A DNA stretch of 64,000 bases from a virus (IMGVR_UViG_3300043432_000485:64001-128000), one strand, 5' to 3'; shown: positions 452-47,060, numbered from the stretch's first letter. A program made the numbers and translations. Notes: generated by a model not told the origin, from the letters alone.

Positions 452-457
452 GGTGTA
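452..457 (+). promoter_or_regulatory. GGTGTA element upstream of thyA
   Basis: GGTGTA lies 10 nt before the ATG at 468, with GGGGGA SD in between. Confidence 0.6.
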
Positions 458-467
458 GGTAGGGGGA

Positions 468-1355
468 ATGAAACCCTACCTAGATCTGCTGAGAACCGCA
501 CTGAATGGACGCGAACGAACCGACCGTACTGGAGTCGGTACCGTTGGCGTGTTCGGGTATCAGCTACGTGTGAACTTGGCCGATGGGTTCCCCCTGTTGA
601 CGACCAAGAAGATGTTCACCAAGGGCATCATTCACGAGCTGCTGTGGTTCATCAGCGGTGACACCCAAGTCAAATACCTGCAGGACAACGGGGTCAAGAT
701 CTGGGACGAATGGGCGACCGCAGAGCAATGCGCTCGCTTCAATCGTCTTCCGGGTGATCTTGGACCCGTCTATGGTTGGGCATGGCGGAGGTTCGGCGCG
801 GCCCCCAACACAGAGCGCTTCTTCGATGCTCAAGGGGAGCTGCGCCAAGGCCCAGGCTATGTTACGGAAGGCTCACGCGCTGGCGTTGATCAGTTGGCTC
901 GCGTGGTTGAGGACATCAAGCGCACTCCCGATAGCCGCCGGTTGATCGTGAGCGGCTGGCATCCAGAGTACGCGACCAAAGTCGCTCTTCCGCCGTGCCA
1001 CACGCTGTTTCAGTTCTACGTGCAAGACGGCGAGCTTAGCTGCCAGCTCTATCAGCGCTCAGCGGACATCTTCCTGGGCGTGCCGTTCAACATCGCGAGC
1101 TACGCTCTCTTGACAATGATGATCGCTCAGGTCACAGGACTCAAGCCCGGTGAGTTCATCCACACGTTTGGGGATGCTCATGTGTACAAGAACCACTTGA
1201 AGCAAGCTGAAGAGCAGCTCTCCAGGGATGCACGCCCGCTTCCCACCATGACCCTCAACCCAGACGTCAAGAGCCTCTTCGATTTCCGGTATGAGGACTT
1301 CAAACTCTCCGGGTACGATCCTCACCCAGCCATCAAAGCAGAGATCGCAGTATGA
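468..1355 (+). CDS. thyA: thymidylate synthase
   Basis: Motifs [21 protein letters not shown], catalytic [18 protein letters not shown] (dUMP-specifying Asn) and GDAHVY. Confidence 0.97.
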
Positions 1356-1392
1356 CCTGGGGGTTCAATGATACCGAGCCCCGGGGAGAACC

Positions 1393-1536
1393 GTGGCCTC
1401 TCGAAGTATCCTAAAGATCCTAGAAGGGTTGCAGAAGAAGCGGGATAGGGATGATGACCTGGATCAGGCAATTGGAGCCGCGATAGCGGTTGGTCTGGTG
1501 GCCCTCGTATACATATGGCTATTCGTCACAAGATAG
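1393..1536 (+). CDS. small single-pass membrane protein (47 aa, not in ORF track)
   Basis: GTG start after GGGGAG; VASRSILKILEGLQKKRDRDDDLDQAIGAAIAVGLVALVYIWLFVTR*; fills the gap between thyA and dCMP deaminase. Confidence 0.5.
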   Translation: MASRSILKILEGLQKKRDRDDDLDQAIGAAIAVGLVALVYIWLFVTR

Positions 1537-6927: not shown

Positions 6928-7248
6928 TCAGAACCAGATCTCGGTGATCTCTAGGTCAGGTACACCGACTGGCACCCGGATCAACCCGTAGGGAATGACC
7001 GCCCTCGCTTCCAGCATTGAGTCCGAGCGGATCCTAGGTTCCGTGGCTGTCCGGATCTGACCCGTAGGGGACACTTGCCAGTGCCGCACCACGAAGGACA
7101 GGTACGGATTGGTTTCCCTGTGGACCACCCAGATATTGGTGGCTCCACAGGAGTCCGTTCGTACCCTCCACTCGGCTGGGATCTGGGTACCAAGAGGGCC
7201 TACGATGGCTCTCACCCATCTAGGCTTGTATGGCTGCCGCGGCGACAT
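6928..7248 (-). CDS. hypothetical protein
   Basis: Likely start MSPRQPYKPRW at 7248; fills the gap below the DHH gene. Confidence 0.5.
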   Translation of the reverse strand: MSPRQPYKPRWVRAIVGPLGTQIPAEWRVRTDSCGATNIWVVHRETNPYLSFVVRHWQVSPTGQIRTATEPRIRSDSMLEARAVIPYGLIRVPVGVPDLEITEIWF

Positions 7249-8278
7249 TGGACTCGTATCTTCCAAGAGCAGACGCAAACAGGGAGTAAGGATCCTGGCT
7301 TCCAGTTCTTGGGTCAAACTGTATAGCGAAGCCTGCAGCCTTAGTATGACCGCCACCGCCCAGTGACTTGCAGAAAGATGCGCAGTCGAAGTCGGTGTGG
7401 GATCTGACTGAGAATACGACTTTGGCGACTCCATCTGCCTCGATGCCCACGTAACCGAAGCCGACAACCAGGTCAGCCTCCCGCCCGAGCAACTCAGCCG
7501 CGTCACTAGCGATGGGGGAATGGCCCGAGAACAGCTTCACCCGGGTGCCACGGGGTGTGGTGAAACCGTAGGCACCCTCGACGGCGCGCTTGACCGTCTT
7601 CTGATGCTTTTCAATCAGAACCTTTCCAAGTGACTTTCGATCCTGCCACAGCTTCAAGTTGGCTTCCTTGAACGGGCGCTTGATGGCCAGCCAGGCTTCG
7701 ATTGGCATGAATCGAAGGGCCTCCACCAGCACGCTGGCATCCCCCCAAAACGGGTCCTTGGTCTGCCAGGTGTCACGCACCCCGGACAGATGCGCGAAAT
7801 GGGCTGCTTCCGCTACCTCGTAGAGTGAGTCCTGTCTCAGCTCGTCAAGGTCATCCTCTTCTGTCAAAGTCCCTGCATAGGCCAAAGCATCAAGGTCCAG
7901 TCGAACTTGATGCAGGGGCAGCCAGACCTCCCGATAGGCCAGCACCGCCCCGCACACTCCGGGATCCGTGACCTCATCACCGAACACCCCATTCTCACCG
8001 AACATCGCTACAACAGCTTTGGCCGTCTTATGATGGTCAAGCACCAGGGCGCCAGCATCAACAAACTCCTGAGCGCGCTCCGGGAGAGGAGAGAAGTCAC
8101 ACCACAGTTGGTTGGGGCCAGGGGTAAACGCCCGGTACTCTGGGGTGTTGTATTGCAGGAAGTGGATCTTCACATCCGGAAGCACATCGTGGATCAAGAT
8201 CGCTGTCGCAACCCCATCCGCACAAGAGTCATGCGTGATGACATCGGTGATAGTCAGTAGCTTGGAGATTGGAATCAT
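7220..8278 (-). CDS. DHH/DHHA1-family phosphoesterase
   Basis: THDSCADG, WCDFS, VLDHH and C-terminal GGGGHTKAAGF. Confidence 0.85.
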   Translation of the reverse strand: MIPISKLLTITDVITHDSCADGVATAILIHDVLPDVKIHFLQYNTPEYRAFTPGPNQLWCDFSPLPERAQEFVDAGALVLDHHKTAKAVVAMFGENGVFGDEVTDPGVCGAVLAYREVWLPLHQVRLDLDALAYAGTLTEEDDLDELRQDSLYEVAEAAHFAHLSGVRDTWQTKDPFWGDASVLVEALRFMPIEAWLAIKRPFKEANLKLWQDRKSLGKVLIEKHQKTVKRAVEGAYGFTTPRGTRVKLFSGHSPIASDAAELLGREADLVVGFGYVGIEADGVAKVVFSVRSHTDFDCASFCKSLGGGGHTKAAGFAIQFDPRTGSQDPYSLFASALGRYESNVAAAAIQA

Positions 8279-8290: not shown

Positions 8291-8296
8291 TACACC
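8291..8296 (-). promoter_or_regulatory. GGTGTA element upstream of DHH gene
   Basis: 12 nt before the ATG at 8278. Confidence 0.55.
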
Positions 8297-8302: not shown

Positions 8303-8812
8303 TCAACCGAAGTCGTATACTGTCACTGAAACATCTGAGAGTTGTCGGACGATGATGGGCTCAACAGCATCCCAACTTCCCCCACCGAGACCTGTTCCGA
8401 TCCTGGGCATGAACACAGACGCTCCTAGTTGTTTGGCCAACACTGCCACCTTTCCCAAGCACTTTTCCAGAGCCCCATATCGTATGGGTGGGGTCGAATT
8501 AGGTACCGACGATTGGTGCAAAGCTTGGTTGTTTATCCCATAACCAGACTGTGCAATGCAATTCACTACATGAAGGTTAGGCGCGACTTTAATCGCTTGA
8601 ATGTTCCCAAGTTCGAACGCCTGACCCTCCCAGTACTTCTGGCGGAACCACTGTCGATAGGCTGCTTCAGGTTCAGGCCAACGCTTGGAGATTGCAAGTA
8701 CGAATCCGGCGCCCCATCCATTTTTGTCGTTTGACACGTGTACGAGCAGACCGTGTTGCTCAGGGGTTACACCAGGTCTAGTTGCGTCCCCTTTTTTGTA
8801 CGTGATTGCCAT
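8303..8812 (-). CDS. Macro-domain (Appr-1''-p processing / ADP-ribosylhydrolase) protein
   Basis: YKKGDAT, HVSNDKNGWGAGF, VVNCIAQ and MPRIGTGLGGGSW. Confidence 0.85.
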   Translation of the reverse strand: MAITYKKGDATRPGVTPEQHGLLVHVSNDKNGWGAGFVLAISKRWPEPEAAYRQWFRQKYWEGQAFELGNIQAIKVAPNLHVVNCIAQSGYGINNQALHQSSVPNSTPPIRYGALEKCLGKVAVLAKQLGASVFMPRIGTGLGGGSWDAVEPIIVRQLSDVSVTVYDFG

Positions 8813-9963
8813 GCTGTCACCTTCCTACACCAATCTCTGAATTCTGGTATTGTCAGGGTGCGACGCATGAGATTGATGCGCTTGGACACCCATTGAACGT
8901 TGTCTATAGTGTACCCAAGATTATTGTCGATTCGATCAAGAGAGGCGGTCGTGTTATGTCCGGAACTCGCAGACCCGAAATAAATAGGCTCCAGGGACAG
9001 AGCGCAAACTTTTCCTTGGGACTCAAAAAGTGACCAAGCATCCCCTACAGATAGTTGAAACGGTAATCTTCTCCGGGTAGCACTGTCTATATACCCAGCC
9101 CACAGAGAACCCCTAATCTCTCGGAATCCGGTGAATTGCAAGCAGCCACACGATTGAGTTGTGCCCCTTACGATCGAATCCAAGCGAGCCGTGATCACGA
9201 CCCCACAGGCGCACAATGCTTCCGCATAAAGTGCCGCATAGGGCAAAGCTTGACGAGACACAGATAGGATCTTCAAACGACTAAAAGAGGCTCCAATATA
9301 CTTAGAGTACTTTGGCTCCCTCAAGGGCTGTACTTGAATGCTGTCAAGCACTGAAGCCGTACGAAACTCCACGGGATTGGTCACTTGGGCACATAGAGAA
9401 ATAAAAGCGTCTACCGATAGCTTGTGCCTCATCAAGTTGATTGTCTTGTGCGTCCACTGCAGATTACCGATCTCGTACCCTATAGATGAATCCAACCTAT
9501 CCAGTGAGGCGGTGGTTTCCGACGGCTTCGCCACTCTGCCGAATCCGATCTGTACCCCAGACATCTTACACATACGAGATTGAGACTCATACAAATCCCA
9601 ACCATGCTCTATGGAAATATGGAATGCTAGGCCTCTTCTCTCAGCGTCACGGCGATAACCATACCACACTTTGCCCCGCAGTTCCTTGTAGCCTTGATAC
9701 CCTGCATTACGTTCACCGAGACTCTGTTCACCAGCTCGTTCACGATGATAGCAGCCACAGGATACGGTCTTTCCGTGCCGCAAGGCTGCTGTCTTGACAT
9801 CTTTGGTCGTCCCGCAATCACATCTGCACGTAGCTTTGTAGCTCCAAACTCCAGGGCGGTTACCGGGGATGTGCTTCAAAGACAATATGGTCAATCGACC
9901 GAATTTTACACCAATCAGATATTCTGGTGGCCTGGGTTTACTTCCTTGGCGGGGCATACCCAC
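8767..9963 (-). CDS. homing endonuclease, HNH-like, with two tandem modules
   Basis: Two copies of G.KF.RL.I...C.C.CG...T.SCGC...SLDR.D...GY...N.QW; visibly more AT-rich than its neighbours. Confidence 0.8.
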   Translation of the reverse strand: MGMPRQGSKPRPPEYLIGVKFGRLTILSLKHIPGNRPGVWSYKATCRCDCGTTKDVKTAALRHGKTVSCGCYHRERAGEQSLGERNAGYQGYKELRGKVWYGYRRDAERRGLAFHISIEHGWDLYESQSRMCKMSGVQIGFGRVAKPSETTASLDRLDSSIGYEIGNLQWTHKTINLMRHKLSVDAFISLCAQVTNPVEFRTASVLDSIQVQPLREPKYSKYIGASFSRLKILSVSRQALPYAALYAEALCACGVVITARLDSIVRGTTQSCGCLQFTGFREIRGSLWAGYIDSATRRRLPFQLSVGDAWSLFESQGKVCALSLEPIYFGSASSGHNTTASLDRIDNNLGYTIDNVQWVSKRINLMRRTLTIPEFRDWCRKVTAWQSRTKKGTQLDLV

Positions 9964-10009: not shown

Positions 10010-10285
10010 TCATCTGAAGCAGGGGTGATTGAGGATGAGCCAAGCCCCCTTCTCGGTCAGCAGGATATTCCCATGATGGTGCCATCCCATCCCCCCACCT
10101 CTGATAAGGCCGTGCTCGGCCAACAATTTGGCCACAGACATAGATTCCTGATCCACGTGTAAGGATAACTGTCGAGGGGGCCGGCCATCCGCTATGACCA
10201 TGTCAGCCAAGGCCCTAAACAGAGCAACTTCTGGGCCTGTCAGGTAAGTGCCATCATCTAAGGTTAGGGCCTCTGCTTCATCCAT
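10010..10285 (-). CDS. hypothetical protein
   Basis: 91 aa ORF with GAGG SD and a GGTGTA element upstream. Confidence 0.6.
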   Translation of the reverse strand: MDEAEALTLDDGTYLTGPEVALFRALADMVIADGRPPRQLSLHVDQESMSVAKLLAEHGLIRGGGMGWHHHGNILLTEKGAWLILNHPCFR

Positions 10286-10293: not shown

Positions 10294-10689
10294 CTACACC
10301 ATCGGGAACAGGATCTCGAACCGCACGCTTGCCGCCCAGAGCTTCTCCATCATGTCGTGCGTCCCTCGATTCTGGGTTTTCGTCACCGGCCCGGTAGAGA
10401 ACCCATATGCCTTGTCAAGCTTGACTCCGGAGCTATCGGGGTGCTCGGAAGCCAGCATCTTCGCGTTGCGCATGTGACCGGCTGCCTTTCCGAACTCATC
10501 CCACTCCTCAGGGGTCACCGGATACGCTCGAATTTCAAACCCTAGGGATCTGCCCACTCGGTCTGCCGCCTTATCGGCTCCGCGAGCATTGCCGTGGATC
10601 AGAATGGTGTCCTTGGGTAACTTGGACAGGATCCGAAGAATCACCCCTTCCTGCGCCCATTCTCTAGATCCGAAAACCAAGACCTTCAT
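10294..10689 (-). CDS. SLOG-family protein (DUF2493 / YspA-like)
   Basis: MKVLVFGSREW, LIHGNARGAD, W..FGKAAG..RN..M and GT..M. Confidence 0.8.
   Translation of the reverse strand: MKVLVFGSREWAQEGVILRILSKLPKDTILIHGNARGADKAADRVGRSLGFEIRAYPVTPEEWDEFGKAAGHMRNAKMLASEHPDSSGVKLDKAYGFSTGPVTKTQNRGTHDMMEKLWAASVRFEILFPMV
10295..10300 (-). promoter_or_regulatory. GGTGTA element
   Basis: 9 nt before the ATG at 10285. Confidence 0.55.
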
Positions 10690-12791: not shown

Positions 12792-12797
12792 TACACC
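12792..12797 (-). promoter_or_regulatory. GGTGTA element
   Basis: 10 nt before the ATG at 12781. Confidence 0.55.
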
Positions 12798-14616: not shown

Positions 14617-14626
14617 GGTGTACCTC

Positions 14627-14632
14627 TACACC
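14627..14632 (-). promoter_or_regulatory. GGTGTA element
   Basis: 10 nt before the ATG at 14616. Confidence 0.55.
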
Positions 14633-15310: not shown

Positions 15311-15319
15311 GGCCCCTAC

Positions 15320-15325
15320 TACACC
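15320..15325 (-). promoter_or_regulatory. GGTGTA element
   Basis: 9 nt before the ATG at 15310. Confidence 0.55.
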
Positions 15326-19080: not shown

Positions 19081-19089
19081 TCCCCATAT

Positions 19090-19095
19090 TACACC
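19090..19095 (-). promoter_or_regulatory. GGTGTA element upstream of clpX
   Basis: 9 nt before the ATG at 19080. Confidence 0.55.
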
Positions 19096-27697: not shown

Positions 27698-27703
27698 TAC
27701 ACC
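27698..27703 (-). promoter_or_regulatory. GGTGTA element
   Basis: 9 nt before the ATG at 27688. Confidence 0.55.
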
Positions 27704-28860: not shown

Positions 28861-28914
28861 GGTTTCATTCTCCGGTGAGTGGTTCGAGTAGCGTTCCTTC
28901 CTTACTACACCGAG

Positions 28915-29571: not shown

Positions 29572-32482
29572 TGAGTTTCTCCTTAACCACCGGAAAGCGG
29601 CCAGGCTCGATCAGGGTCACGTTCCCCACCACGTCGGTTATGTGCAAGTCGTAACCCTCGTCATTATCAATACAATCTATAATGATTCTGCATACTTGCT
29701 CGGCAGTGTGGTCGTTGAGCTTTTCCAGCCGGAGCTTCAGCACGCGGGGGTTCTGCTTGGCTCTTTGGGCCGCAGAGGTGGGCGGGCTGCTGGGCTGGCG
29801 CTGCACGACTGGCGCTGGGGAAGCCGCCACCGACTCTTTGCTCGGGGGTAGAATCGAGGTAGGCGGGACATCTCTAGGCGTTCCGCCACTCGGTTCTGTT
29901 GGAGAAGGGGTAGAGTTGGCCGAGACTACCCAGGGGGCGTCGATGATCCTGAAGACCTGCTTGGTTTCACCCTTGGACACAACCTCCTGGATGATCTCGT
30001 TCTGATCGAGGTTCTCTACGATCTCGTCCTTTTTGTTCGTCTTGGGCTTGCGAGTGAGGCTGTAGATGAAGCCGTTCATCAGAACCTCGTGCTCCTTGGG
30101 CACCTGGTCCTTGTGGGCACGCTCGGCCTTGTACCCGCTGGCCCAGTTGAACCCCACCAAGGGCTCAACCACAAGCGGCACCTGCCATTTCGGATTCTGT
30201 GGAATGCGCCACGGGGACTCCATGATGTCCACGATGATGGGCACCGCCTCAGCTACGCGATCGTTCCGAATCTCGAACACGATTTCATCGTGCACGCACA
30301 GAAGCATGCGCACCGAGTCATCCCCGCCATTGCGAAGCCAACCCATCTTATGGAACTTCTTGTGCAGCAACACCATGCTGATCTTCAGGATGTCTGCACC
30401 GGCACCCTGGATTGGGTAGTTGGTCGAGTAGCGCTCGCACGCCGAACGAACGGCGCCGTCCGGGCTGTTTGCATCCGGAATCGCCAACCAGCGCTTGAAC
30501 GCAGTGGTGACCCCGAGGTCCTCCTTGACCTTCTTGTGCTGGCGCTTGGACCACTCTATGAAGGTGGGAACTGACTTGTCGAAACCCTGCTTCCTGCGCT
30601 TGCCCTCCAGCTCATCGCAACCGGTGTTTCGCATGACTGCCTTGGGGCCACCGCCATAGATGAGCAAGAAGTTGACGATCTTGCCGACGTTACGTTCCTC
30701 TTTGCTCAGCTCCTGTTTACCGAAGATGCTGCGCCCAGTGATGGTGTGCAGGTCACCGGTGCCGTGCAGGAACTCCTTGATCCACACCTGCTCGTCAGAT
30801 ACGTTGGCTGCGATTCGCAGCTCTTCGGCCGCGTAGTCCGCCTTGACGATCGTGTATCCAGTGCGACCCACGAAACTACGGCGGACTTCCGAATCCCCTG
30901 GGATACCGTGAATCGGGATGCCGGAGTAGCCATGGTCAGGCTTGCCACCTGGGGCTGAAAACCGGCCGCTGCCTGCACCGGTCTGCTTGAAGGAAAACCG
31001 AAGCTCATCGTTCTCATCCGGATTGTTCACCAATCCCAGCAAGTACGTCCCGATGAACTTCTCCGCCTCGCGATACTCCACGATGTCCTTCAAGATCGTC
31101 GGAGCGTTCGGCAACTTGGCCAACCCTGACAGTGTATCGCCGTCGGTCTTGAATTGCTGACTAGCCTCATTCCTCTCAGGCTTCGGGCGCAAGTCCAATC
31201 CTTTGGGCAGGTCTCCGAACAGGAACTCCCCGAGCTGCTTGGGGCTGTTCGGGTCCAGGTCGGTCAAACCACGCTCTTCCAGCGCGAACTTGCGAATGCG
31301 CTCCAACAGGTCAGCCTTGAGGGCTTCCTTCTCTAGCAGGATCTCTCTGACCTTGTCCCGGGCGATCCGTACGCGGCTGCGCTCCATCGGACGCAGTGCG
31401 CATGCCACCTGCTTCTCTAGCCGGTACGTGAACGAGAACTTGTTCTTGTGGCATTCTGCAACGATGTTAGGAAGCTTGCACAAGAGGTAGGTGCAGATAG
31501 CGTCTGAACCTGCGTAGCGCAGAACGCCGGGCTCGTCCGGAGCGAGTTTGTCAAATCGAATCTCCCTGGACTTGCCGAAGAACAGCTCCTTCAACTCGAT
31601 CATTTCATATGGGTTGCCGTCCTTGTCCCGCAAGAACTGCTTGGCCTTGGGCTTCAAGCCGATGCCCTTGTCACCAGCGTTTATCACGAAGCTGGCGAGC
31701 ATCCCGCACTCGAAGGATTCCGGGTGCCACCAATCAATGCCAGTGACAGGATAGAGGAACTCCTGGTCAAACTGAGCGTTCCAGAAGTAGATCACGAGCT
31801 TGGGCGGAGAGCACTTGTACGATAGGGCGTCTTTGTCCTTGTCGTCTTGAGTACCCTCAGGGATCGCGGCATGGCACAACCTAGAGATGGCTTGCTCTAC
31901 TTCCGCCAAAGGACCCACGTTGAGATCCGGGTAACCATCATTGGGCTTATGCCGGATCGGGATGTAGAACCCGGTGTGCCCGTCGTAGGAAATACAGAAC
32001 CCGACGATCTTGTCCACGGTGTCGGGGGAACCGTCCTCGCGATAGATGATACGGTTGTCCAGGCCGGTGCACTCCAAGTCTAGGGAGCACGACCCACGCT
32101 TGATGCACTCGTCCACGATCTCGTTCACCTCAGCCACTGAAGTAACCAGGCGGAACTCGTGATGCACCATCCACGGCTTGGAGATGTCCGGGACTTGACG
32201 GTCCCGCTTCATGCCGGAATTTTCCAAAAAGTCGAGGGGGTCGTCGCCGTCATCCTCAACGATGGCTTTCACCATTGCAACAGGAGCCACTGGGCTCATG
32301 GCTTCCTCGAAAGCCTCCACGGGGTCTTCGTTGATGTCTGTGCCGTCAGGATAGGAATCAGGTTCTGGGGTTGGTTCGGCCGCCACCACAGCAGCTGGCA
32401 TGGCGGCAGGAGCAGCCGGCTCATCTTTGCCGAACATGTCTAGAAACGCGTCAAGATCTTCTTCTTCGTTCTGTTGGCTCAT
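29504..32482 (-). CDS. polA: DNA polymerase family A with 3'-5' exonuclease
   Basis: Exo motifs DLECTG, NAQFD and YAGSD; pol motifs ADYAAEELR, RNVGKIVNFLLIYGGG, NYPIQGAGAD and VHDEIV. Start MSQQNEE at 32482. Confidence 0.95.
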   Translation of the reverse strand: MSQQNEEEDLDAFLDMFGKDEPAAPAAMPAAVVAAEPTPEPDSYPDGTDINEDPVEAFEEAMSPVAPVAMVKAIVEDDGDDPLDFLENSGMKRDRQVPDISKPWMVHHEFRLVTSVAEVNEIVDECIKRGSCSLDLECTGLDNRIIYREDGSPDTVDKIVGFCISYDGHTGFYIPIRHKPNDGYPDLNVGPLAEVEQAISRLCHAAIPEGTQDDKDKDALSYKCSPPKLVIYFWNAQFDQEFLYPVTGIDWWHPESFECGMLASFVINAGDKGIGLKPKAKQFLRDKDGNPYEMIELKELFFGKSREIRFDKLAPDEPGVLRYAGSDAICTYLLCKLPNIVAECHKNKFSFTYRLEKQVACALRPMERSRVRIARDKVREILLEKEALKADLLERIRKFALEERGLTDLDPNSPKQLGEFLFGDLPKGLDLRPKPERNEASQQFKTDGDTLSGLAKLPNAPTILKDIVEYREAEKFIGTYLLGLVNNPDENDELRFSFKQTGAGSGRFSAPGGKPDHGYSGIPIHGIPGDSEVRRSFVGRTGYTIVKADYAAEELRIAANVSDEQVWIKEFLHGTGDLHTITGRSIFGKQELSKEERNVGKIVNFLLIYGGGPKAVMRNTGCDELEGKRRKQGFDKSVPTFIEWSKRQHKKVKEDLGVTTAFKRWLAIPDANSPDGAVRSACERYSTNYPIQGAGADILKISMVLLHKKFHKMGWLRNGGDDSVRMLLCVHDEIVFEIRNDRVAEAVPIIVDIMESPWRIPQNPKWQVPLVVEPLVGFNWASGYKAERAHKDQVPKEHEVLMNGFIYSLTRKPKTNKKDEIVENLDQNEIIQEVVSKGETKQVFRIIDAPWVVSANSTPSPTEPSGGTPRDVPPTSILPPSKESVAASPAPVVQRQPSSPPTSAAQRAKQNPRVLKLRLEKLNDHTAEQVCRIIIDCIDNDEGYDLHITDVVGNVTLIEPGRFPVVKEKLIEQLVERNLLCLSDLENDSASA

Positions 32483-32889
32483 GGTTCCCTTACGACAACT
32501 ACGTACACCTCGGAGCGCCAGAGTTTGACGATCTCCGCAGCCATTTGTCCGGGCTCGAACCCAGTGGGTTCGAAGCACCAAGGCATCTTCTTGGAGAAGG
32601 GGCTGCAGTCCTTTCTGTCAAACATCGAGCACGTTTTTTCGTGGGCGCAATGGCGTGCTGCTTGAGGCATTAGCAGCAGCTTCCCCTTTGGGGGCGGTCC
32701 CAACTGGTCAACCAATGGCTTGGTCCAACCGCTTAGGGCGTGGTCCATAACCTCTTTAGTGACTGAGGGGATGTCCATCACCCCTTGCAGTCCACGCCAC
32801 TCTTCCTCCCATTCTCCCGCCACTTCGTAGATCAGATAGAGCTGAATCGTGCCCATCTCCCGACTAGGGATTTGCAGTCGTCTTGGCAC
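32479..32889 (-). CDS. Cys-containing hypothetical protein
   Basis: 136 aa between the primase fragment and the polymerase. Confidence 0.6.
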   Translation of the reverse strand: MPRRLQIPSREMGTIQLYLIYEVAGEWEEEWRGLQGVMDIPSVTKEVMDHALSGWTKPLVDQLGPPPKGKLLLMPQAARHCAHEKTCSMFDRKDCSPFSKKMPWCFEPTGFEPGQMAAEIVKLWRSEVYVVVVREP

Positions 32890-35018: not shown

Positions 35019-35903
35019 TCAGTCCTCATCCATGCTGGGCAGAGAGGTTCTGGTTGGAGCCCGGCCTCCCCACGCCCTCTTGTTGTACGACTTGCGGGGC
35101 TTGGACGTTGGGAACCGGGGCTTCACTTCGGTAACGGTGGTAGTCAGCTTTTCCGGACCATCGTCCATGGACACTGCCCCCTCCTCGAAGATCCTAGCCA
35201 CCTCTTGAGTCTCCTTCTGGTTCTGAGCCACTTCTTCAGCGTCCGTACCCAGATCGATGACTTCAAACTCGGAGTCAATGTAGTTTCCAAGGTCGTAGCT
35301 ATACGCCTGATGGCCGTCTCCGAAAGTGGTACCACTTTCAGCAATCCAGACCGGCTTACTGAAGGCTTCCCGCACCATCAACGCTTGTTGCAGCACCCCT
35401 GCCATCGCCTTGTTCTTAGTAGTGAGCATACCTAGCCGGATGATCAACAGGGTGGGGTGAGAGACCAGGTCATCAAGACTGTTGTTCGTCTCAACCTCGT
35501 CGCGCTGACTCGCCGACCTCGCTTTGTAGGACTCCTTGCCGAGCCACACATCCAGCAGCCGAGCATCACCGACGATCTTGTATGTGAACCCTGGATTGGC
35601 CATTCTTTTACCGGTCAGCACCCAACGAAGATGCCGACACAGCACGGACCAACTGCCTTTGATGAAGAGATTCTCGGTGGTACGGTCACCGATCTCCTCC
35701 CCGTGTTCGTTGAAAGAGGGCATATACAGGTCACTCTTGATGTGCCGAGAGAAAAAGATCTCCGCACCCAGGTAGTCCTGATGACGCTTACGCTCCAAGC
35801 AAGAGCATGGGATAGGGACTACCCGATCTCCCTCCAGCTTGTACGACCATTGTGCGCCATGGCACTTCTGGCACCCGGATTTACTTGGCTTCTGTTCGGT
35901 CAC
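35019..35903 (-). CDS. DnaC/DnaI-like helicase loader, apparently inactivated ATPase
   Basis: CxxC..CxC N-terminus; NLFIKGSWS at the Walker A position and LLIIRLG at the Walker B position; next to dnaB. Confidence 0.55.
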   Translation of the reverse strand: MTEQKPSKSGCQKCHGAQWSYKLEGDRVVPIPCSCLERKRHQDYLGAEIFFSRHIKSDLYMPSFNEHGEEIGDRTTENLFIKGSWSVLCRHLRWVLTGKRMANPGFTYKIVGDARLLDVWLGKESYKARSASQRDEVETNNSLDDLVSHPTLLIIRLGMLTTKNKAMAGVLQQALMVREAFSKPVWIAESGTTFGDGHQAYSYDLGNYIDSEFEVIDLGTDAEEVAQNQKETQEVARIFEEGAVSMDDGPEKLTTTVTEVKPRFPTSKPRKSYNKRAWGGRAPTRTSLPSMDED

Positions 35904-37672
35904 AACTTCTTCTGTACACCAGTGGTTCGAAGGCTACGTTGCAGTTCTTGCGTGAAGCTGGACTCGCCTTTGAAATCCAGAGCGCCTACCGCGGCTTCCC
36001 CTAAGACCTTGTCAATCAAGTCCTTCTTCTTTTGGAGAATGGCCAGCGTGTAGTGGTCTATCGTCTTCCGTTCCTTCCCTACCCGCGGGCGTTCGGCAAC
36101 AAGATGCACAGCAACAACCTTCTCATGCGGAGACCCGATGCGGATGGGGCGTCCAAGCAACTGAATGTAGTTGCCCCATGACCAAGGGGCGTTGTAGAAG
36201 ATCATTGCCGACGCCGCTTGGAGGTTGATTGCCTCACTCCCTGCATCACTGATGAAGATCACCTTGACCTTGGACTTGAGGTCCTGGAACTTCTGCTGGG
36301 CTTTCAGCCGGGCGGGGTTCTTCTTGGTATCGACTACACCCCCGGTGACCGCCACGCTCTCGATGCCTTGCTTCTTGCACAGCTCCTGCAGTCTCGGGAT
36401 CAAGCTGGCAAAGCGGCAGTACACGATCACTTTTTCATCATCGAACTCTTCCGCAAGCAGATCCAAAAGGGCTTGCTCTTTGGACCCCGTGGCGGTGACC
36501 TCTGCGGCCTCGCTGAACACGTCCAGGTCGATCAAGTCTCCCTCTCCATAGCGGAGCAAGGAAAGGGAGTCCACAGTCTTCTGACAGTAGATGAGGGCTA
36601 CCAAAGCCTTGTGCTCTTCGTACTCCTTGAGTTCCCCGTCCCCCAGCGCAATCACGCCAGATAGGGCCTCTGAGTACTTGGCATCCTCGGCCGCTGACAT
36701 GGTGACCTGCACTTCTCGGGTCGTGAGCTTGGGCAGCTCGTCCGAAATGATATGCTTGGCCCGTCCCAAGAAGAATGGATCGATGCGCGCACGGAAAGCT
36801 TCCAGGTTCTTGTACCCCACCACGATCGGAATCTTGCGTCCACCAGATACACTCTGGAGCTTCGTGACGCAGTAGTCTCGTAGGAATGCGGACTTGGTTG
36901 TGAAGACCTGAGGGTAAATCACCTTGTAGATCGAGAAGCCCTCAATCAGGTTGTTCTTGAGCAGCGTTGCGGTGAGTCCGTAGCAACGATTCGCCCGAGC
37001 GGATAGGTCCCCACAGACCTGCCAGGTTTTCGTGCGATCCGATTTGAACGCCGTGGCCTCATCAAACACTACGGTCAGGTCAGGAATCTTGGACGTGATC
37101 CTATCCAGCAATCCCGGAGTGATGATCCCCTTGGGGTCAGGCTGCCCATTTGGCAGCAAGGGGATGATCTGCCCCGCGTTCCAGTCCCTTACCAGCGGGG
37201 CGTAACCGATCATCATCACCGCTTTGGTCGGTCCCTTGTGAAGAGCAAACTCAAGATAGGTTTGCTTTCTCTCCATAGGGGTGCCGTCCACGATGTAGAC
37301 GGTGATCCCCGTAGAGAACTTGTCGATCTCAGCCGCCCATTGACGCAGGGCAGACTTGGGGCACACCACGATAGCCTTGTTGTTGGGCTCCTTCTCCCAC
37401 GTGTAGCAGAGAGCCGCGATGACCATCAAGGTCTTGCCAACCCCCGTCGCATCCCCAAGGACCATCCGCTTCATTGCCAGCAGGTGGTAAATTGCTTGCA
37501 CCTGGTAGTAGCGTAATCGGAACGGCTGGGAGGTCCCGTCCAGCCCCACGAACTCTGAGCGCAGCATCGAGGTAGGCTTGAGAGCAACAGTTTTGCTCTC
37601 CCGCACCTTCTTCAGAGTCTCGTAGACTCTGGCATGCTTATCGACCACATCTTCTTTAGGAGCAGCTGCCAT
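35900..37672 (-). CDS. SNF2-family (SF2) helicase
   Basis: GDATGVGKT, VVCP, VFDEAT, GLTAT, EAINLQ and QLLGRPIRIG. Confidence 0.9.
   Translation of the reverse strand: MAAAPKEDVVDKHARVYETLKKVRESKTVALKPTSMLRSEFVGLDGTSQPFRLRYYQVQAIYHLLAMKRMVLGDATGVGKTLMVIAALCYTWEKEPNNKAIVVCPKSALRQWAAEIDKFSTGITVYIVDGTPMERKQTYLEFALHKGPTKAVMMIGYAPLVRDWNAGQIIPLLPNGQPDPKGIITPGLLDRITSKIPDLTVVFDEATAFKSDRTKTWQVCGDLSARANRCYGLTATLLKNNLIEGFSIYKVIYPQVFTTKSAFLRDYCVTKLQSVSGGRKIPIVVGYKNLEAFRARIDPFFLGRAKHIISDELPKLTTREVQVTMSAAEDAKYSEALSGVIALGDGELKEYEEHKALVALIYCQKTVDSLSLLRYGEGDLIDLDVFSEAAEVTATGSKEQALLDLLAEEFDDEKVIVYCRFASLIPRLQELCKKQGIESVAVTGGVVDTKKNPARLKAQQKFQDLKSKVKVIFISDAGSEAINLQAASAMIFYNAPWSWGNYIQLLGRPIRIGSPHEKVVAVHLVAERPRVGKERKTIDHYTLAILQKKKDLIDKVLGEAAVGALDFKGESSFTQELQRSLRTTGVQKKL
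35915..35920 (-). promoter_or_regulatory. GGTGTA element
   Basis: 11 nt before the GTG at 35903. Confidence 0.5.
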
Positions 37673-37682: not shown

Positions 37683-37688
37683 TACACC
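37683..37688 (-). promoter_or_regulatory. GGTGTA element
   Basis: 10 nt before the ATG at 37672. Confidence 0.55.
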
Positions 37689-41115: not shown

Positions 41116-41522
41116 TTGCTTGGATCCTTGGGGGGTTGAGACGGTGGGCTGATGGAGTCATCTACACCGGGGAGGTTGATGTCGATCCCTTCTTTCTTGG
41201 CCAAGCCCTTCAAGAACTCGTAAGCCCACACAGAGAGCGCTCCCGCAAGTGCGAAGTAGCCCATGCTCGCCGGAAGAGACGTGATGCCCGCTTCCGGGAC
41301 CCGCCAGATCGCTCCAACGGCCATTCCAACCGCTATCGGATGCAGGGGGAGAGTCTTGCGACCCCACCAGAAAAACCACAAGGGTTTCTTGGTCTTATAG
41401 GCGTCTTTCGTGAAAATGACGTTTTTCACTACTTGCCCGATAATCATGAAGATCGCCAAAGCCGAAATAAACGGCCAATGGGGTAACACATTGTCGGTGA
41501 TTATCTTAACGGTCTCATCCAC
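41112..41522 (-). CDS. three-TM small membrane protein (putative holin)
   Basis: GTG at 41522 after GGAGAGAGG; three hydrophobic segments; charged C-terminus. Confidence 0.55.
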   Translation of the reverse strand: MDETVKIITDNVLPHWPFISALAIFMIIGQVVKNVIFTKDAYKTKKPLWFFWWGRKTLPLHPIAVGMAVGAIWRVPEAGITSLPASMGYFALAGALSVWAYEFLKGLAKKEGIDINLPGVDDSISPPSQPPKDPSK

Positions 41523-41758: not shown

Positions 41759-44700
41759 TCAGCTCCTTTGCGAGAGCTGGATCGCAGACGGATCCAGCTG
41801 CAGCCGGACGTTGTTGCGAACGAGGGGGTGCCCCTCGATGCGATACAAGTCCGCCGCCGAGTATCCCTCCCCAGCACCATTCGTGCTGATCGTGACAAAC
41901 CCCGGAGTTGGGTTAGGAGCGATCGCGGCCGGACGCTGGGCAGTGGTCACCACCAGCAACATCAGCTCGTCTCCGGCTGACACTTCAGAAGCTCCGACGT
42001 TGGTGACGAAGTTCCTAACCAACATGGCTCGGCCTTGGAGCAGATTGCAATGTGTCGTCTGTGCAACCACCGCTTGGTTCTGCAGCGAAAGAGTCCCGCC
42101 GGGGTGAGAACCGTTCGCTGTGAACACCGAGCCGCCTCGATAGACACGGTAGTTGGTGAGCAGACTGAAGTCGCCCTGCTCTCCATCGACATGCACGAGC
42201 AAGTCGCCTGGGGAACCGACACCACTGGAGCCAGAATCTAGGATGACCTCATCCTGCTCCAGCTGATGGCTCGCGGCCAAGCCCGTAGCCGGACCGACAC
42301 CCACGATATCTGAGTAGAGCAGAGGCGCGGGGGTAGGACCAAAGCCCTGACCTCGGAAGTCCTTGTCACGGAACAACCCGCCAAGAGGCAGGCGCTCTGT
42401 GCACCCAAGATACTCGGTGCCAATGCTTGTCACGTCATTGGTAGAGAAGTTGCCAGCGAGAACCTGAGGACGCGGGGCGACGCCAGAGTTGGGTGGGAAC
42501 ACCGCTGGGTCTTCATAGGCTACATCCCTGAAGTCCAACGCGTTCAACACCGCATCAGCCGAGTAGCGACCAGTACCCAAATCGGTGCTGAAGCTAGTGG
42601 CAGCCACCACCTCCAACAGTTTCTGATTGGGGCGAGTCAAAGCATCCGGGTTCAACGGGGTGGCTAGCTGGAACGCTCTCTGAGATTGGATCGGCCCATA
42701 AGAGTACGGGAGATCCGTGTAGCTGGTCTGGCTTCCCCAGGCATCTCCCTGATACACAGTGCGGCTGTAGTTGATCAGGATCTGATCCGACTGTTCAGCC
42801 GGTCCAGGAAGAACACCGGACACGCTAGCTACAAACTTGTTGATGTTGGCGTCTCGGCCTACCTGAGTGCCCGCTACGTTGACGTTACCAACGCCACCGG
42901 CCACGGAACTCCAACCATTGACGGTCTGAGGACGTGTCAGGACGAGACGGAACTCCTTGCTCACGTCGAAGGAGCCACGATCGAAACCGAACACTACAGC
43001 CTCGACCACGTATGTCCCTAGATCGAAGCTGGAGATGGGCGTCGGTGCTTTGGTGATGTCGATTGCATTAGCATTGAGGATGAAAGTAGAGTCTCCATCC
43101 GCATCAATCTCGATCCACATGGCCGGACCATCGTTTGGACCCATGGCTTGACGCAGGAGGTTGACTGCAGTTCCCACGCCGCCCGTTTGACGGGTATCCG
43201 TGAAAGGACTGCCAGCGACCGCATAGTCGCTTGCTTGGTAGACACCCATGATGCGCGAGACGCCATAGAAGGGAGGGAACTCCAGGCCCTTGCGATTCAA
43301 GCCACGTGTATCGGTGAAGAACCTGATACCGGCCCACAGATTGCTCTCTGTTCCAGTTACCGCGGTGTTGTAGGAGATTGGAGTAGTGTACGGGGTGATA
43401 GCAGTAACCTGACTGAACACCGAGTACTCATTCGAACCGCTGCCACCGTTGAAATAGGCGGCGTAGTTGCTCTGAACGGAGGCTCCGCTTGCACTGCGGA
43501 TCACATAGTTGATGCCGCTTACGAATGAAGCCGAGTCCACCGGGAGGATCGGGGTCCGGACTTCACCCCAACCTGGCACCAGGTACCTCGGAAGCGTCAC
43601 GTAGACACTCTCGTAGGACAGATTTGCAGGCCCGGTGAGGCTGGCCGACGTCCCGCAAAACAAACCTAGGGGATCGGTTTGAGTCCACTTGGAGGCGCCA
43701 TTGACATCACCCAAGGGCATGCAGCCCTGAGCGCTGTGGATCGTGAATGCTAGAGAAGTGCCCGACGGTACCAGGATTGGCCGATCAACCGTGATGGTCA
43801 CGCCCGGGGTGATGGCAGTGATCGTGTACGAACCTGTTCCTGGGCCGCTTGCGATGATCAAGGCGTCCCGTACTGCTGTAGTACCGGTTGGGCCAACGTT
43901 GATCACACGCCCGTTGGCCGAAGCCGCGGTGCCAGAGGTGACTACGCTACCTGCCTTAACCGCCGGAACGGGATTGGCTGCAATACCATCGATTGTGAGC
44001 GGAGTCGGGAAGTCGATGCGTCGGAAGGGAGTGACAATCAGCGTCTTGCTGCCAAGGTCAGCATACGTCTCCGCCGTAACAGGAAGGGCACCATTCAGAG
44101 GGGCTGGACGGTACTTGCTCCACAGAGGAGCCCATGCGACCTGCGCGCTCTTGTTGTTCGTGGGGATCCCAGACTGCTTGGTCATCAGGTCCGTTGAGGG
44201 GGACAAGAACGAGACCGAGTGTAGTGAGTCTGGACGCCGAGAGAGCCCGCGGCCAGGACCGTACACGACGTGCGCCCTGATGTGCAGCAGCTTAGGCGTA
44301 GGAGACGTGTTGGTCTGGTTGGCGAAGAACGGAGACAAGAAGGTGATGGTCAGATCATCGGTCGGTGTCGGGTTCGCCGGAGTGACCGAGTACATGGTTG
44401 TGGGGATGTCCCCCGTCTCACCATCGAAGCGAAGGCGAACCGCACCTGACACGCTATCGTTCAGCCAGCGCACCTGATCGGTAGAACCTGCCTGTAGACC
44501 ACCCTTGAGCTGGTTCACAGGGAGCACAATCGTATCGAGAGCCGTGAACTGTCCACCAACACTCTGCAAGGTCGTATTGACCACTAGGCCAACCGAGAAA
44601 CCAGAGACGTTGATCGGGGTTCCTGGACCCGGAGCCACGCTTGTGCCATGCGGCTGTGCAATGCACTCCACTGGCTGAATCGTAGCCGCGTCTGAGAATA

Positions 44701-46141
44701 CGGTGCGGATGTTGTCAGGGGCGTCGAGCTTGGTGACACCCATAGACACGGCCGCCGACGTGATCGAATCCTGGTAGTGGACGTACGAACCGCGAGGTCC
44801 GCCACCGGATAGCTTCCAGTTGGCGCGCAGCTGTCCGCGCAAGAGCTTGTCCAGATTGCTCTTGAGCAACGCCTGGTAGTCGAACCCGTTCGGATTGACG
44901 ACGTGACGCAAATCCAAAATGTCCGAGTTAGCGATCTGATCCGAGAACAACCCATCGGGCCGCGAGGAGATCACTTTGACGGTTGCGCCAGCCTTATGGG
45001 CCTCTGCCACTGTGCCGTTAGACCCTCTGCTACCAGCCACGATGTTGAGCGTGGTACCGGTGATGGACGAGTAGGTCATCAGCTCGTCTCCGATCTGGAT
45101 CAGCACAGGAGTCGCAGGGCTGGCTGGCAGCGGGATAGCTGTCACAGAAGCCAAGGTCATCGTGAGAGCCGTAGACGTGACGGCAGAGGCCAATGAAGGC
45201 GTCGTCGAGAACGTCTTGATCCCCGTGCGATCAACCGCCGTCGGATTCCGGTTGAAGCCGCCGTTCAGGTTCTGGCTTGGGTTGCCATTCCAGGTGACCG
45301 AGTTGCGGCGGAACACAGCCGCCATGGGGACCGCGTAGACGTAACCGTCGACTGTGCCCAAAGCATTCTGAGTTCCATCACCAGCGCGCCACAATCCCGG
45401 GTCCCCGAGCGTCTGGCGCATGTTGGCGAAGGTATACGACGTCGGTGTTGCGGCGGCGCCTTGGCCCTTCACAACAACCGGGTCAAAGCCGTCAGGGTTG
45501 TTGGAGAAGCCCACCAAGCCCTTGACCACACGAATACGGTATTGCACCTGGACACGCTGATTGGTCTCATACCCAAACGCCGGGTCAACCAGGTCATCAG
45601 CCAAGAAGCTGTTGCCGCCTTCAACGTTACCGTTGCGATAGATGGCCGAAGCCGCGGGCTTGTTGGTCACCGACGGGTTGGGCTGCACGCGCACCTTGAA
45701 CACTTCAAGGAACACGAAGTCGATCCGGAAGTCACCACTGGCCGCCGGAGGAGGGTCCAACGCAATGATGTTGGTGGTGTCGACGTTGTTGGGGCTGCCA
45801 GGGGGAGAGCCAGTCTTGGTGGCCGTCACAGGAATGAGATACCCCGCAACGTTGGCCCACATCACTCCGCGCTGCTCGCCTGAACGCTGAGGTCCAAACT
45901 TGAAGAAATTTGACCAGGTTGGGTTGGTCAGATAGCACGCCTGCAGATTGGTTTCGTTACCCAAGAACCCCGAGGGGAGCCCACGTAGCACAGAGCTTCG
46001 AACAGCGTCGATCCCCAGCTGTTGCATCAATAGGAGTTCCGAGTCTGTCGGCGGCTTACCTTGCTGCCAAATGGTAGTGACGTATTGGGTGTCGTCTGAC
46101 AGCAATACCCTGGATACCCCCGGGCCGAAGTTATCGCTCAT
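41759..46141 (-). CDS. large virion structural protein (baseplate or tail)
   Basis: 1460 aa, Gly/Thr/Pro-rich; N-terminus QQGKPPTDSEL..Q; paralogous to 54089-56707. Confidence 0.7.
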   Translation of the reverse strand: MSDNFGPGVSRVLLSDDTQYVTTIWQQGKPPTDSELLLMQQLGIDAVRSSVLRGLPSGFLGNETNLQACYLTNPTWSNFFKFGPQRSGEQRGVMWANVAGYLIPVTATKTGSPPGSPNNVDTTNIIALDPPPAASGDFRIDFVFLEVFKVRVQPNPSVTNKPAASAIYRNGNVEGGNSFLADDLVDPAFGYETNQRVQVQYRIRVVKGLVGFSNNPDGFDPVVVKGQGAAATPTSYTFANMRQTLGDPGLWRAGDGTQNALGTVDGYVYAVPMAAVFRRNSVTWNGNPSQNLNGGFNRNPTAVDRTGIKTFSTTPSLASAVTSTALTMTLASVTAIPLPASPATPVLIQIGDELMTYSSITGTTLNIVAGSRGSNGTVAEAHKAGATVKVISSRPDGLFSDQIANSDILDLRHVVNPNGFDYQALLKSNLDKLLRGQLRANWKLSGGGPRGSYVHYQDSITSAAVSMGVTKLDAPDNIRTVFSDAATIQPVECIAQPHGTSVAPGPGTPINVSGFSVGLVVNTTLQSVGGQFTALDTIVLPVNQLKGGLQAGSTDQVRWLNDSVSGAVRLRFDGETGDIPTTMYSVTPANPTPTDDLTITFLSPFFANQTNTSPTPKLLHIRAHVVYGPGRGLSRRPDSLHSVSFLSPSTDLMTKQSGIPTNNKSAQVAWAPLWSKYRPAPLNGALPVTAETYADLGSKTLIVTPFRRIDFPTPLTIDGIAANPVPAVKAGSVVTSGTAASANGRVINVGPTGTTAVRDALIIASGPGTGSYTITAITPGVTITVDRPILVPSGTSLAFTIHSAQGCMPLGDVNGASKWTQTDPLGLFCGTSASLTGPANLSYESVYVTLPRYLVPGWGEVRTPILPVDSASFVSGINYVIRSASGASVQSNYAAYFNGGSGSNEYSVFSQVTAITPYTTPISYNTAVTGTESNLWAGIRFFTDTRGLNRKGLEFPPFYGVSRIMGVYQASDYAVAGSPFTDTRQTGGVGTAVNLLRQAMGPNDGPAMWIEIDADGDSTFILNANAIDITKAPTPISSFDLGTYVVEAVVFGFDRGSFDVSKEFRLVLTRPQTVNGWSSVAGGVGNVNVAGTQVGRDANINKFVASVSGVLPGPAEQSDQILINYSRTVYQGDAWGSQTSYTDLPYSYGPIQSQRAFQLATPLNPDALTRPNQKLLEVVAATSFSTDLGTGRYSADAVLNALDFRDVAYEDPAVFPPNSGVAPRPQVLAGNFSTNDVTSIGTEYLGCTERLPLGGLFRDKDFRGQGFGPTPAPLLYSDIVGVGPATGLAASHQLEQDEVILDSGSSGVGSPGDLLVHVDGEQGDFSLLTNYRVYRGGSVFTANGSHPGGTLSLQNQAVVAQTTHCNLLQGRAMLVRNFVTNVGASEVSAGDELMLLVVTTAQRPAAIAPNPTPGFVTISTNGAGEGYSAADLYRIEGHPLVRNNVRLQLDPSAIQLSQRS

Positions 46142-47043
46142 GGTGTTGTCCTCTGATCTGGTTCATGGGTGTCAACTTGATGGTTCATAGGGAGTTTCTT
46201 GAAACGCGGCATACCCAAGCGTTTCCTATACAGGTGCACACTGGCCTTGGATACACCGAATAAATCTGCCACATCAGTGTCTAGCATCGTTCCGACTGAG
46301 CTGTGCCATGGCCGTAGCGCAGGAACTTGAAGGCGCGGTTTAAATGCAGAGATCTGGGACTGAGGGCTCCCAACCACTCGGAGTTTCCATACCCTGTTTA
46401 CCGTAGAGGGGTCCGTTCTAGGAGTGGGGGTTCTCTTTTGGGTCCGTTCTCGATGACAATTAGCGCACACTACTTCACACTTAGCCGCTTCATCTAAAAT
46501 CTTCTGTCTGCTTCTCATGTGGGGGACAGGTCCTACGCGAATCCCGCGTACATGATCAAAATCCATCTGGCAGAAATGAAACGATTTGCCACAGTCAAGG
46601 CACGGATGGGACTTGAGTTGAATGACCAATCTCCGACGACTATCTTCCCACTTGGTACCAGGAACCCACGTCCTTAAGCGATGACAACAAACACAAACCA
46701 CGTCACATTTGGCAACCTCTTCTAGGATTGTCCTCCACGGAGAATTGCTCTTATTGATCAACTGAGAAACCTCATGGAGCTTGTTGGCGGGGTTCCGGTG
46801 ATCAAAATCCATCACATGCGGAGGGAAAGAAAGTGCGCAGTCCGCACAAGGGACTGACTTCAGAACATCGATGGCTGCATGGCGTTCTAGCTTCTTACGT
46901 CTTTGGGCCTCAGAGTTTTTAGTGTAGCGGGTATCTTTCCTGGCATGTTGTTGCAGGGATTCACATATTCGGCAGATCCGCCTATGCTTACGGAAGTTGA
47001 TCCCCTCTACTCCGCACTCACGGCATTGTCGATTTTCCGCCAT
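46138..47043 (-). CDS. HNH homing endonuclease with tandem HNH modules
   Basis: Two copies of K..PC.DC...F....MDFDH...KC.VVC..CHR.RT. Start MAENRQC at 47043. Confidence 0.85.
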   Translation of the reverse strand: MAENRQCRECGVEGINFRKHRRICRICESLQQHARKDTRYTKNSEAQRRKKLERHAAIDVLKSVPCADCALSFPPHVMDFDHRNPANKLHEVSQLINKSNSPWRTILEEVAKCDVVCVCCHRLRTWVPGTKWEDSRRRLVIQLKSHPCLDCGKSFHFCQMDFDHVRGIRVGPVPHMRSRQKILDEAAKCEVVCANCHRERTQKRTPTPRTDPSTVNRVWKLRVVGSPQSQISAFKPRLQVPALRPWHSSVGTMLDTDVADLFGVSKASVHLYRKRLGMPRFKKLPMNHQVDTHEPDQRTTP

Positions 47044-47054
47044 CCTTCTCAACC

Positions 47055-47060
47055 TACACC
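47055..47060 (-). promoter_or_regulatory. GGTGTA element directly after a terminator
   Basis: 11 nt before the ATG at 47043 and 11 nt downstream of the terminator U-tract. Confidence 0.6.

Follow-up and report, generated by a model that had tools for sequence, protein, structure and literature searches.

What does a six-base element do that stands in one orientation, at an almost fixed distance, before the start codons of many genes in a viral genome? The question is raised by a stretch of viral DNA of 64,000 nucleotides (nt) (IMGVR_UViG_3300043432_000485:64001-128000; hereafter the window), in which an earlier reading of the sequence, here the original prediction, had noticed the hexamer GGTGTA (hereafter the box) upstream of 13 genes and suggested a phage-specific regulon. 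The window comprises bases 64001-128000 of an IMG/VR virus record of 203,362 bp and 56% GC, called G000 here; a genome coordinate is the window coordinate plus 64000. Because CheckV puts the completeness of the record at 43%, a near-identity search among GenBank phages found no close relative of it, and its DNA polymerase best matches that of an uncultured 485-kb phage (33% identity), we conclude that the record is a fragment of an uncultivated huge phage. Comparison with related genomes makes it likely, in our judgement, that the box, which in its extended form reads T-Y-GGTGTA-R, belongs to the -10 region of promoters of a phage-specific class and constitutes their core element; many of their mRNAs would be leaderless.

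All 13 sites were found at the coordinates first reported, with spacers (the nucleotides that separate box and start codon) of 9-12 nt, and so were two longer-spaced copies, with 32482 following after 21 nt and 28860 after 45 nt. GGTGTA occurs 35 times in the window, a count that none of 100 shuffles reached; 18.7 +/- 4.2 copies are expected. Positional enrichment upstream of genes, set beforehand as a genome-wide check, is present and peaks at 9-10 nt: the spacer histogram of the 119 copies in G000 rises above a flat 0-5 copies per position only at 9 nt, with 17, and at 10 nt, with 11. In all, some 35 start codons of the 203-kb record have the box at a distance of 9-10 nt. Genes had been called with a purpose-built simple caller using codon-usage log-odds, and these home-made calls take in spurious small open reading frames (ORFs). 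When all 4096 hexamers were scored for copies 9-10 nt before a candidate start, GGTGTA reached 24 of its 119 copies, its overlapping neighbours 12 and 7, and unrelated hexamers at most 4. All 18 one-mismatch variants score 0-2 at this spacing, and all six bases of the box are therefore needed. In the extended consensus T-Y-GGTGTA-R, the base 5' of the box is C in 17 sites, T in 8, and a purine in none, and the start codon is ATG in 22 of 25 sites. Intergenic DNA, which makes up 12% of G000, contains 56 of the 119 copies, and the start-associated sites cluster at genome 1-102 kb, with only three beyond. GGTGTA is also the top-enriched k-mer of upstream regions in G000 and, likewise, in one of its relatives, G001.

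The relatives came from a helicase-based search, which returned 11 IMG/VR contigs at protein identities of 53-76%, their GC content ranging from 43 to 58%. Three relatives were examined almost entire: G001 (411,618 bp, complete, with terminal repeats, 44% GC), G002 (IMG/VR 3300044680_000280, 55% GC, 400 kb examined), and G004 (255 kb, 59% GC). In most of the 11 contigs the box lies 9-10 nt before the start of the helicase orthologue, with diverging flanks, and box and spacing are kept in related huge-phage genomes spanning 44-62% GC. In G004 the counts are 19 at 9 nt and 8 at 10 nt, and every copy is a single box. G001 has 226 copies, 23 of them at 9 nt and 11 at 10 nt; 119 of the 226 lie in the intergenic 12% of its DNA, and 103 of these 119 face a same-strand gene within 200 nt. 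In G002 the box precedes 134 genes, with spacers of 10 nt in 63 copies and of 11 nt in 47, ATG as start codon in 123 of the 134, and a pyrimidine at -1 before the ATG in 107. Two contigs that encode distant homologues (27-35% identity) of a sigma-like protein described below also show the box before starts. The box thus appears to be common to a whole clade of uncultivated freshwater huge phages.

The most telling arrangement is found in G001, where TTGA(A/C)Y precedes 42 boxes at a distance of exactly 17 bp from their TA and occurs at most 7 times at any other spacing. The consensus of these two-box elements, aaaCTTGAAT-N13-GGTGTAGTAATAGAT-ATG, is, as far as sequence can tell, the geometry of a sigma70-family promoter, with a -35 hexamer in the 16-18 bp range of that family, a 17-bp spacer, and T(-12) A(-11), and it would put +1 on or beside the A of the ATG. 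In about 25 of the 42 elements the ATG follows 9 nt after the box. In about 15 it does not, and at least nine of these have AAGGAG, AGGAGG, or GGAGGT at least 6 nt after the box and then a normally spaced ATG; in the shortest such leaders the Shine-Dalgarno (SD) sequence starts at 6-10 nt from the box, with the ATG at 20-26 nt. Because the same element heads both leaderless and SD-led messages, it should be a transcription signal, as nothing else could do both. In G002, 15 divergent gene pairs have outward-facing boxes with start codons 16-134 bp apart, and six of these gaps measure 36-51 bp, so short that they leave no space for other promoters plus leaders. The box is moreover used before transfer RNA (tRNA) genes: it lies 12 nt upstream of the mature 5' end of the sole G000 tRNA (CUA anticodon, genome 45313-45239) and 10 nt upstream of tRNA-Arg(tct) in G004. 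Two candidates had been offered for the box at the outset, a single-box phage promoter giving very short leaders and a binding site for a translational regulator. The -35 box at 17 bp in a relative, the leadered copies with an SD, the boxes before tRNAs, and the short divergent pairs support the promoter, whereas the same comparative evidence lends no support to the translational regulator.

Our working model is that host RNA polymerase with a specialised sigma factor would use the T-Y-GGTGTA-R promoter, the TA of the box lying at -12/-11 and GGTG at -16 to -13. A purine 8-11 nt past the box would be the first base transcribed, and with the start codon 9-10 nt after the box (10-11 in G002), the mRNA would start at the ATG or no more than a few nucleotides from it. 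Most copies would thus yield leaderless or near-leaderless messages, and others a longer leader with an ordinary SD. A -35-like element was not seen in G000 or G004, where all copies are single boxes, as is characteristic of extended -10 promoters; in G000 the box would therefore act alone and head the genes for thymidylate synthase, a ClpX-like protein, a nucleotidase, a helicase, and DNA polymerase together with many small genes. A TA-like signal that precedes the start by about 10 bp is an accepted in-silico mark of leaderless genes (PMC3160421), and the spacer peak at 9-10 nt, with no SD at a functional distance, agrees with it. Also consistent with the predicted start site are the SDs that begin 6-10 nt after the box in leadered copies and the pyrimidine at -1 and purine at +1 around the ATG in G002. 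From this geometry we infer the exact transcription start site and the leaderless translation, and from the phage's relatives a reader of the box.

GGTG is part of the anti-SD complement GGAGGTGATC, so that extended pairing with the anti-SD might in principle account for the box. The distances do not suit this explanation: GGTG ends 11-12 nt from the start codon, whereas AAGGAG and GGAGG peak at 4-9 nt from starts, the same range in which the gap between SD and start peaks for the SD-led genes of G000. Beyond GGAGG, the 16S tail has GGTGAT as its true complement, and this hexamer is without positional enrichment in either genome examined; the T and A of the box and the preceding pyrimidine are invariant yet unable to pair; and the box stands before tRNAs as well, besides having a -35 partner. 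Extended anti-SD pairing is thus, in our estimation, next to negligible as an explanation, and the box was rejected as a member of the SD class on its wrong distance and on the lack of enrichment of GGTGAT and of degenerate one-mismatch variants. Anti-SD pairing, named beforehand as what would refute the proposal, fails the positional tests, and the claim that the box is not simply a ribosome-binding site stands. One argument given for that claim, a separate SD in the spacer, fails: the supposed SDs are mostly a G-rich run, 0-2 nt from the ATG in nine of 11 cases, and such runs are too near the start codon to act as an SD. The spacers of G001 have an SD-like content no higher than that of random 9-mers. 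Many spacers in G000 and G002 end in TAGGG(G/Y) or similar 0-2 nt before the ATG (for example, at window 458-467, 15311-15319, and 19081-19089), and these ends may represent a discriminator or a start-site-proximal promoter element.

Three further explanations of the box deserve to be weighed. It could act in the mRNA, as a translation signal bound by a protein, of phage or host, or by a ribosome component that boosts or represses initiation 9-10 nt downstream. The fixed distance to the start codon and the preference for ATG would suit such a signal, as would its use mostly in the non-structural half of the genome, the many copies in 15-40-nt gaps inside co-directional gene strings, and the same gross pattern shown by the start-associated sequences (SAS) of Cluster K mycobacteriophages (PMC3203893). 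Yet the box is found before tRNA genes in two genomes; the -35-like box at exactly 17 bp from 42 G001 copies would have no role in RNA; in some copies the start codon comes 20-26 nt downstream, behind a well-spaced SD distinct from the box; and back-to-back boxes fill divergent gaps of 36-51 bp that have no space for other promoters. We regard this explanation as improbable.

The use before both ORFs and tRNAs would suit an RNA-processing signal, at which a sequence-specific endoribonuclease would cut long transcripts near GGUGUA and free leaderless mRNAs and tRNA precursors. Strict invariance is typical of nuclease sites, and four or five tRNAs of G004 have the box 0-2 nt past their 3' ends. 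This explanation is nevertheless very unlikely in our view: it leaves the fixed 17-bp -35 box unexplained, outward-facing pairs in very short divergent gaps would need antisense transcription through the neighbouring genes, and the SD downstream of the box in leadered copies fits a start site equally well as a cut. We judge no more favourably the possibility that the box is an operator half-site, through which a phage DNA-binding regulator acting on otherwise unrecognised promoters would switch the regulon on or off. It draws on the enrichment of TACACC in upstream regions and on palindromes of the form GGTGTA-N4-8-TACACC at G000 genome 78617-78632 (window 14617-14632) and 41246-41265 and at G002 230037-230054. 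The sites are mostly single and strictly oriented, however, no other conserved promoter element accompanies the boxes in G000 or G004, and the palindromes can be accounted for as back-to-back promoters of divergent genes. Host-type NtcA, LexA, or RpaB sites were likewise rejected, because half-sites that are single, in one orientation, and fixed in their distance from the start do not suit them.

If the box is a promoter element, a protein must recognise it, and the leading candidate is a divergent sigma-like protein conserved in the clade. This family of proteins of about 320 amino acids is present in G001 (105.4-106.5 kb), G002, G003, and G004 (240.2-241.3 kb) and has 52 database homologues. 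The Pfam family Sigma70_r2 matches 13 of 23 aligned members weakly (best E 9e-6, most below the cut-off). An AlphaFold model (pLDDT, the predicted local distance difference test, 83) was compared with known structures by VIA-align, and sigma factors make up more than 25 of the top 50 matches, with Z 5.5-7.5: RpoE at 7.5 (over 81 residues), SigB at 7.4, SigH at 7.1, sigma28 and sigma32 at about 6-6.5, and the gp55-containing complex 7d7d_F of phage T4 at 6.5. A profile search of the family against PDB sequences gave no match. The model suggests a fold in which a beta-rich insert splits a sigma domain 2, with a C-terminal helical domain after it. The gene itself has no GGTGTA within 300 nt upstream in the four genomes, and in three of the four it is preceded by a host-type element, TTGAC(A/G)-N15-17-TA; this arrangement fits a cascade in which host sigma would give rise to phage sigma and phage sigma would turn on the GGTGTA regulon. 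In the distant phage LR745208.1, a 45-kb replication region shows no box-spacing peak; the sigma-like protein has no match among GenBank phages, and none in LR745208.1 by tblastn. As to a phage-encoded polymerase, Pfam Rpb1 domains 1 and 2 have no match in the genomes searched, the complete G001 included; a model of T7-type RNA polymerase also gave no match, but this search is uninformative because its controls were silent. In G002, where the modal distance from box to start is 10-11 nt compared to 9-10 nt in G000, G001, and G004, the sigma-like homologue is also the most divergent: it is a 395-amino-acid frame whose match falls into two pieces, at 41% and 26% identity. Co-evolution of reader and promoter is a possibility. 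We tentatively propose that the clade has its own divergent sigma with a beta-rich insert that would read the invariant YGGTGTA, giving up to at least 130 leaderless mRNAs per genome, an SD-independent switch, and co-evolved spacing. With the same reserve, we can picture phages with genomes of about 0.4-0.5 Mb in which much of the non-structural expression would pass through this sigma.

A number of observations weigh against a phage promoter read by this protein, or against parts of that proposal. The start site and the leaderless state of the messages are read from the geometry of box and start codon, and G-rich SD-like runs are found in 11 of 28 G000 spacers. No T is conserved at -7 in TA-R-N-N-R, the -10 hexamer that follows from this reading; the equivalent position is A or G in 21 of 25 G000 sites and T in 3, while the T and A of the TA are invariant, and with a purine there it is not the hexamer of a housekeeping sigma (TAnnnT). 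Nor is the box a classical extended -10 element (TGn), since its TG abuts the TA without an intervening base and is one base out of register; shifting the register to fit turns position -11 into G or A. Enrichment at divergent junctions, where the strand switches, is modest, at 8 of 42 versus 20 of 176 in G000 and 12 of 88 versus 26 of 433 in G001 (p = 0.02), and is weak evidence only, because the gene calls include spurious small ORFs. A terminator followed by a box was rejected as a general rule, a canonical terminator lying upstream of two of 28 sites in G000 and none of 38 in G001; the case at window 47111-47055 is real but an exception. The box stands directly before none of the 36 tRNAs of G001, which are presumably co-transcribed, as they are clustered. 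As for the reader, the sigma-like protein was not found in the 43%-complete G000 record, its gene probably lying in the missing part; the structural Z values are middling (<8); and Foldseek with the model gave no significant match. The link between protein and box, made of their co-occurrence and the one negative control of LR745208.1, is no more than suggestive.

Full-text literature searches returned no account of the GGTGTA motif, only unrelated uses of the string, and nothing relevant on leaderless expression in huge phages. The closest analogues in function would be the middle and late promoters of Thermus phage P23-45, which have an extended -10 element without a -35 element (PMC3950348), and the single-box promoters of small phage sigmas such as T4 gp55. 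As in P23-45, the GGTGTA promoter would combine an enlarged -10 element, the lack of a -35 element, and the redirection of host RNA polymerase to phage genes. It differs in that GGTG abuts TA, in place of TGn-TATAAT, with no conserved T at -7; in that a subset of copies in one relative, G001, has a -35 box; and in its reader, which is probably a phage sigma-like protein and not a host sigma A remodelled by a gp39-type protein. The middle and late transcripts of phiYS40, a relative of P23-45, are reportedly leaderless. In T4 the late promoters, TATAAATA, have gp55, a small phage sigma, as their reader; those of SPO1 have gp28 and gp33-34. These systems resemble the proposed one in a short, near-invariant -10 box, a divergent phage sigma on host core polymerase, and a temporal cascade. 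They differ in sequence and in the genes served, which for the GGTGTA box are DNA-metabolism and small accessory genes and not virion genes; in the start codon, which here would lie at or beside +1; and in the large beta-rich domain inserted into the sigma-like protein. The -35 box of G001 is like that of RpoH-like promoters (CTTGAA ... CCCCAT), but the -10 is unlike. The exact G001 two-box pattern was found among IMG/VR contigs only in G001, and across 185,579 bacterial and archaeal genomes it gave six scattered single hits, about chance level, so that no host could be identified from it.

Likeness to other leaderless genes and to other phage motifs goes only part of the way. The leaderless genes of Actinobacteria and Deinococcus-Thermus (PMC3160421) have, like the genes described here, a TA 9-10 nt plus 2 upstream of the start, a preference for ATG, and no SD at a functional distance; in the phages, however, the signal is a strict clade-specific 8-9-mer and not the host's degenerate TANNNT, and in a huge phage it would serve as many as roughly one gene in four. 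SAS of Cluster K mycobacteriophages, a 13-bp GGGATAGGAGCCC with an AGGAG SD core 3-7 bp from the start, are thought to be translational (PMC3203893). With SAS and extended SAS (ESAS) the box shares being phage-specific, confined to a subset of starts mostly in the non-structural half, in one orientation, and with ATG preferred; it lies farther from the start, has no SD core, occurs before tRNAs, and pairs with a -35 box. We therefore rejected membership in the SAS class, sequence and distance both differing and only the gross distribution being alike. The jumbo phages phiKZ and AR9 have short phage-specific consensus promoters in very large genomes, as the present clade may, and encode their own multisubunit RNA polymerases that make leadered mRNAs (PMC8244752, PMC5312081), whereas no Pfam-detectable phage polymerase was found in the GGTGTA clade. 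No leaderless transcript has been found in phiKZ, and the untranslated regions of AR9 measure 26-491 nt (PMC8244752, PMC5312081).

The main interest of the box lies in the scale of leaderless expression predicted for huge phages and in the candidate sigma factor. About a quarter of genes are suggested to be expressed as leaderless mRNAs, unlike in phiKZ and AR9, and if this is true, phage-wide SD-independent translation would spare the phage messages any host or phage control of SD-led initiation. Because the box lies 9-11 nt upstream, it pins the true start codon and thereby improves the annotation of gene starts and operons in uncultivated huge phages. The candidate sigma factor is testable in vitro without culturing the phage, and if it is confirmed, the short box and its sigma would form a compact orthogonal expression module.

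Within the window, the box at 452-457 is on the plus strand, 10 nt before the ATG at 468 of thymidylate synthase (468-1355; Pfam PF00303, E 3e-113); all other boxes described here are on the minus strand. That at 8291-8296 lies 12 nt before the ATG at 8278 of a 352-amino-acid protein of unknown function (7220-8278). The original prediction had overlooked a site at 8826-8831, 13 nt before the ATG at 8812 of a 169-amino-acid protein (8303-8812). Spacers of 9 nt separate the boxes at 10295-10300, 15320-15325, 19090-19095, 22651-22656, and 27698-27703 from the ATGs of, respectively, a 91-amino-acid ORF (start 10285; 10010-10285), a 74-amino-acid protein (15310), a ClpX-like AAA+ ATPase (19080; 17809-19080), a DUF4145/HEPN protein (22641; 22003-22641), and an AAA ATPase (27688; 26141-27688); the box of the DUF4145/HEPN gene lies 3' of a T-run. 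At 10 nt stand the box at 12792-12797, directly 3' of a hairpin, before the ATG at 12781 of a 175-amino-acid protein, and the box at 37683-37688 before the ATG at 37672 of the helicase (35900-37672), this last box being kept before the orthologous gene in at least seven related contigs whose flanks diverge. The starts 11 nt downstream comprise two GTG codons, at 24097 (box 24109-24114; NT5C-type 5' nucleotidase, 23528-24097) and at 35903 (box 35915-35920, within the 3' end of the helicase gene; 294-amino-acid protein), and the ATG at 47043 (box 47055-47060) of a 301-amino-acid protein, the first gene of an operon. Among the products of the genes downstream of boxes are several small proteins of unknown function.

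Two window copies have leaders. The family A DNA polymerase (29504-32482) has its box at 32504-32509, with a leader of 21 nt containing AAGGGAA before the ATG at 32482, and the copy GGTGTAGTAAGGAAGGA at 28906-28911, 45 nt before the ATG at 28860, is interpreted as a leadered promoter copy. A further copy forms one arm of a palindrome, GGTGTA-N4-TACACC, of 16 bp at 14617-14632; its minus-strand box, 14632-14627, lies 10 nt before the ATG at 14616 of a 130-amino-acid protein. The same 16-bp layout occurs in G002 at 230037-230054, flanked by CAT and ATG, so that the divergent gap there consists of two overlapping outward-facing boxes, and the window palindrome would likewise be a two-way, back-to-back promoter pair. 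Outside the window, inside a gene at genome 41246-41265, GGTGTActagatgcTACACC has the form GTA-N8-TAC, that of the cyanobacterial NtcA-type palindrome; the site may be merely an internal back-to-back box pair.

The terminator reported directly upstream of the 47055 box was confirmed as an intrinsic-terminator-like hairpin with a T-run at 47111-47075 on the minus strand, ending 14 nt upstream of the box. The box had been described as absent before tail genes; the block of large genes beyond 47060 has only intragenic copies, none of them at gene starts. The operon headed by the 47055 box contains a 1460-amino-acid protein (41759-46141) with a weak match to a tail-fibre PHROG (E 1e-4), so that the box is possibly not strictly limited to non-structural genes; a middle timing and a restriction to such genes are plausible.

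Boxes also occur in the tRNA-rich regions of two relatives. In G001, 36 tRNAs and a transfer-messenger RNA (tag ANDNAALPLAIAA) lie in clusters at 217.6-250.6 kb with small box-driven ORFs in between. In G004 206365-210760, at least four tRNA genes (Gln, Arg, Cys, and His) have a box starting 0-2 nt past their 3' end, and three of these boxes have an ORF 9 nt on and one another tRNA, so that the 3' ends of the tRNAs and the next putative promoter are packed end to end.

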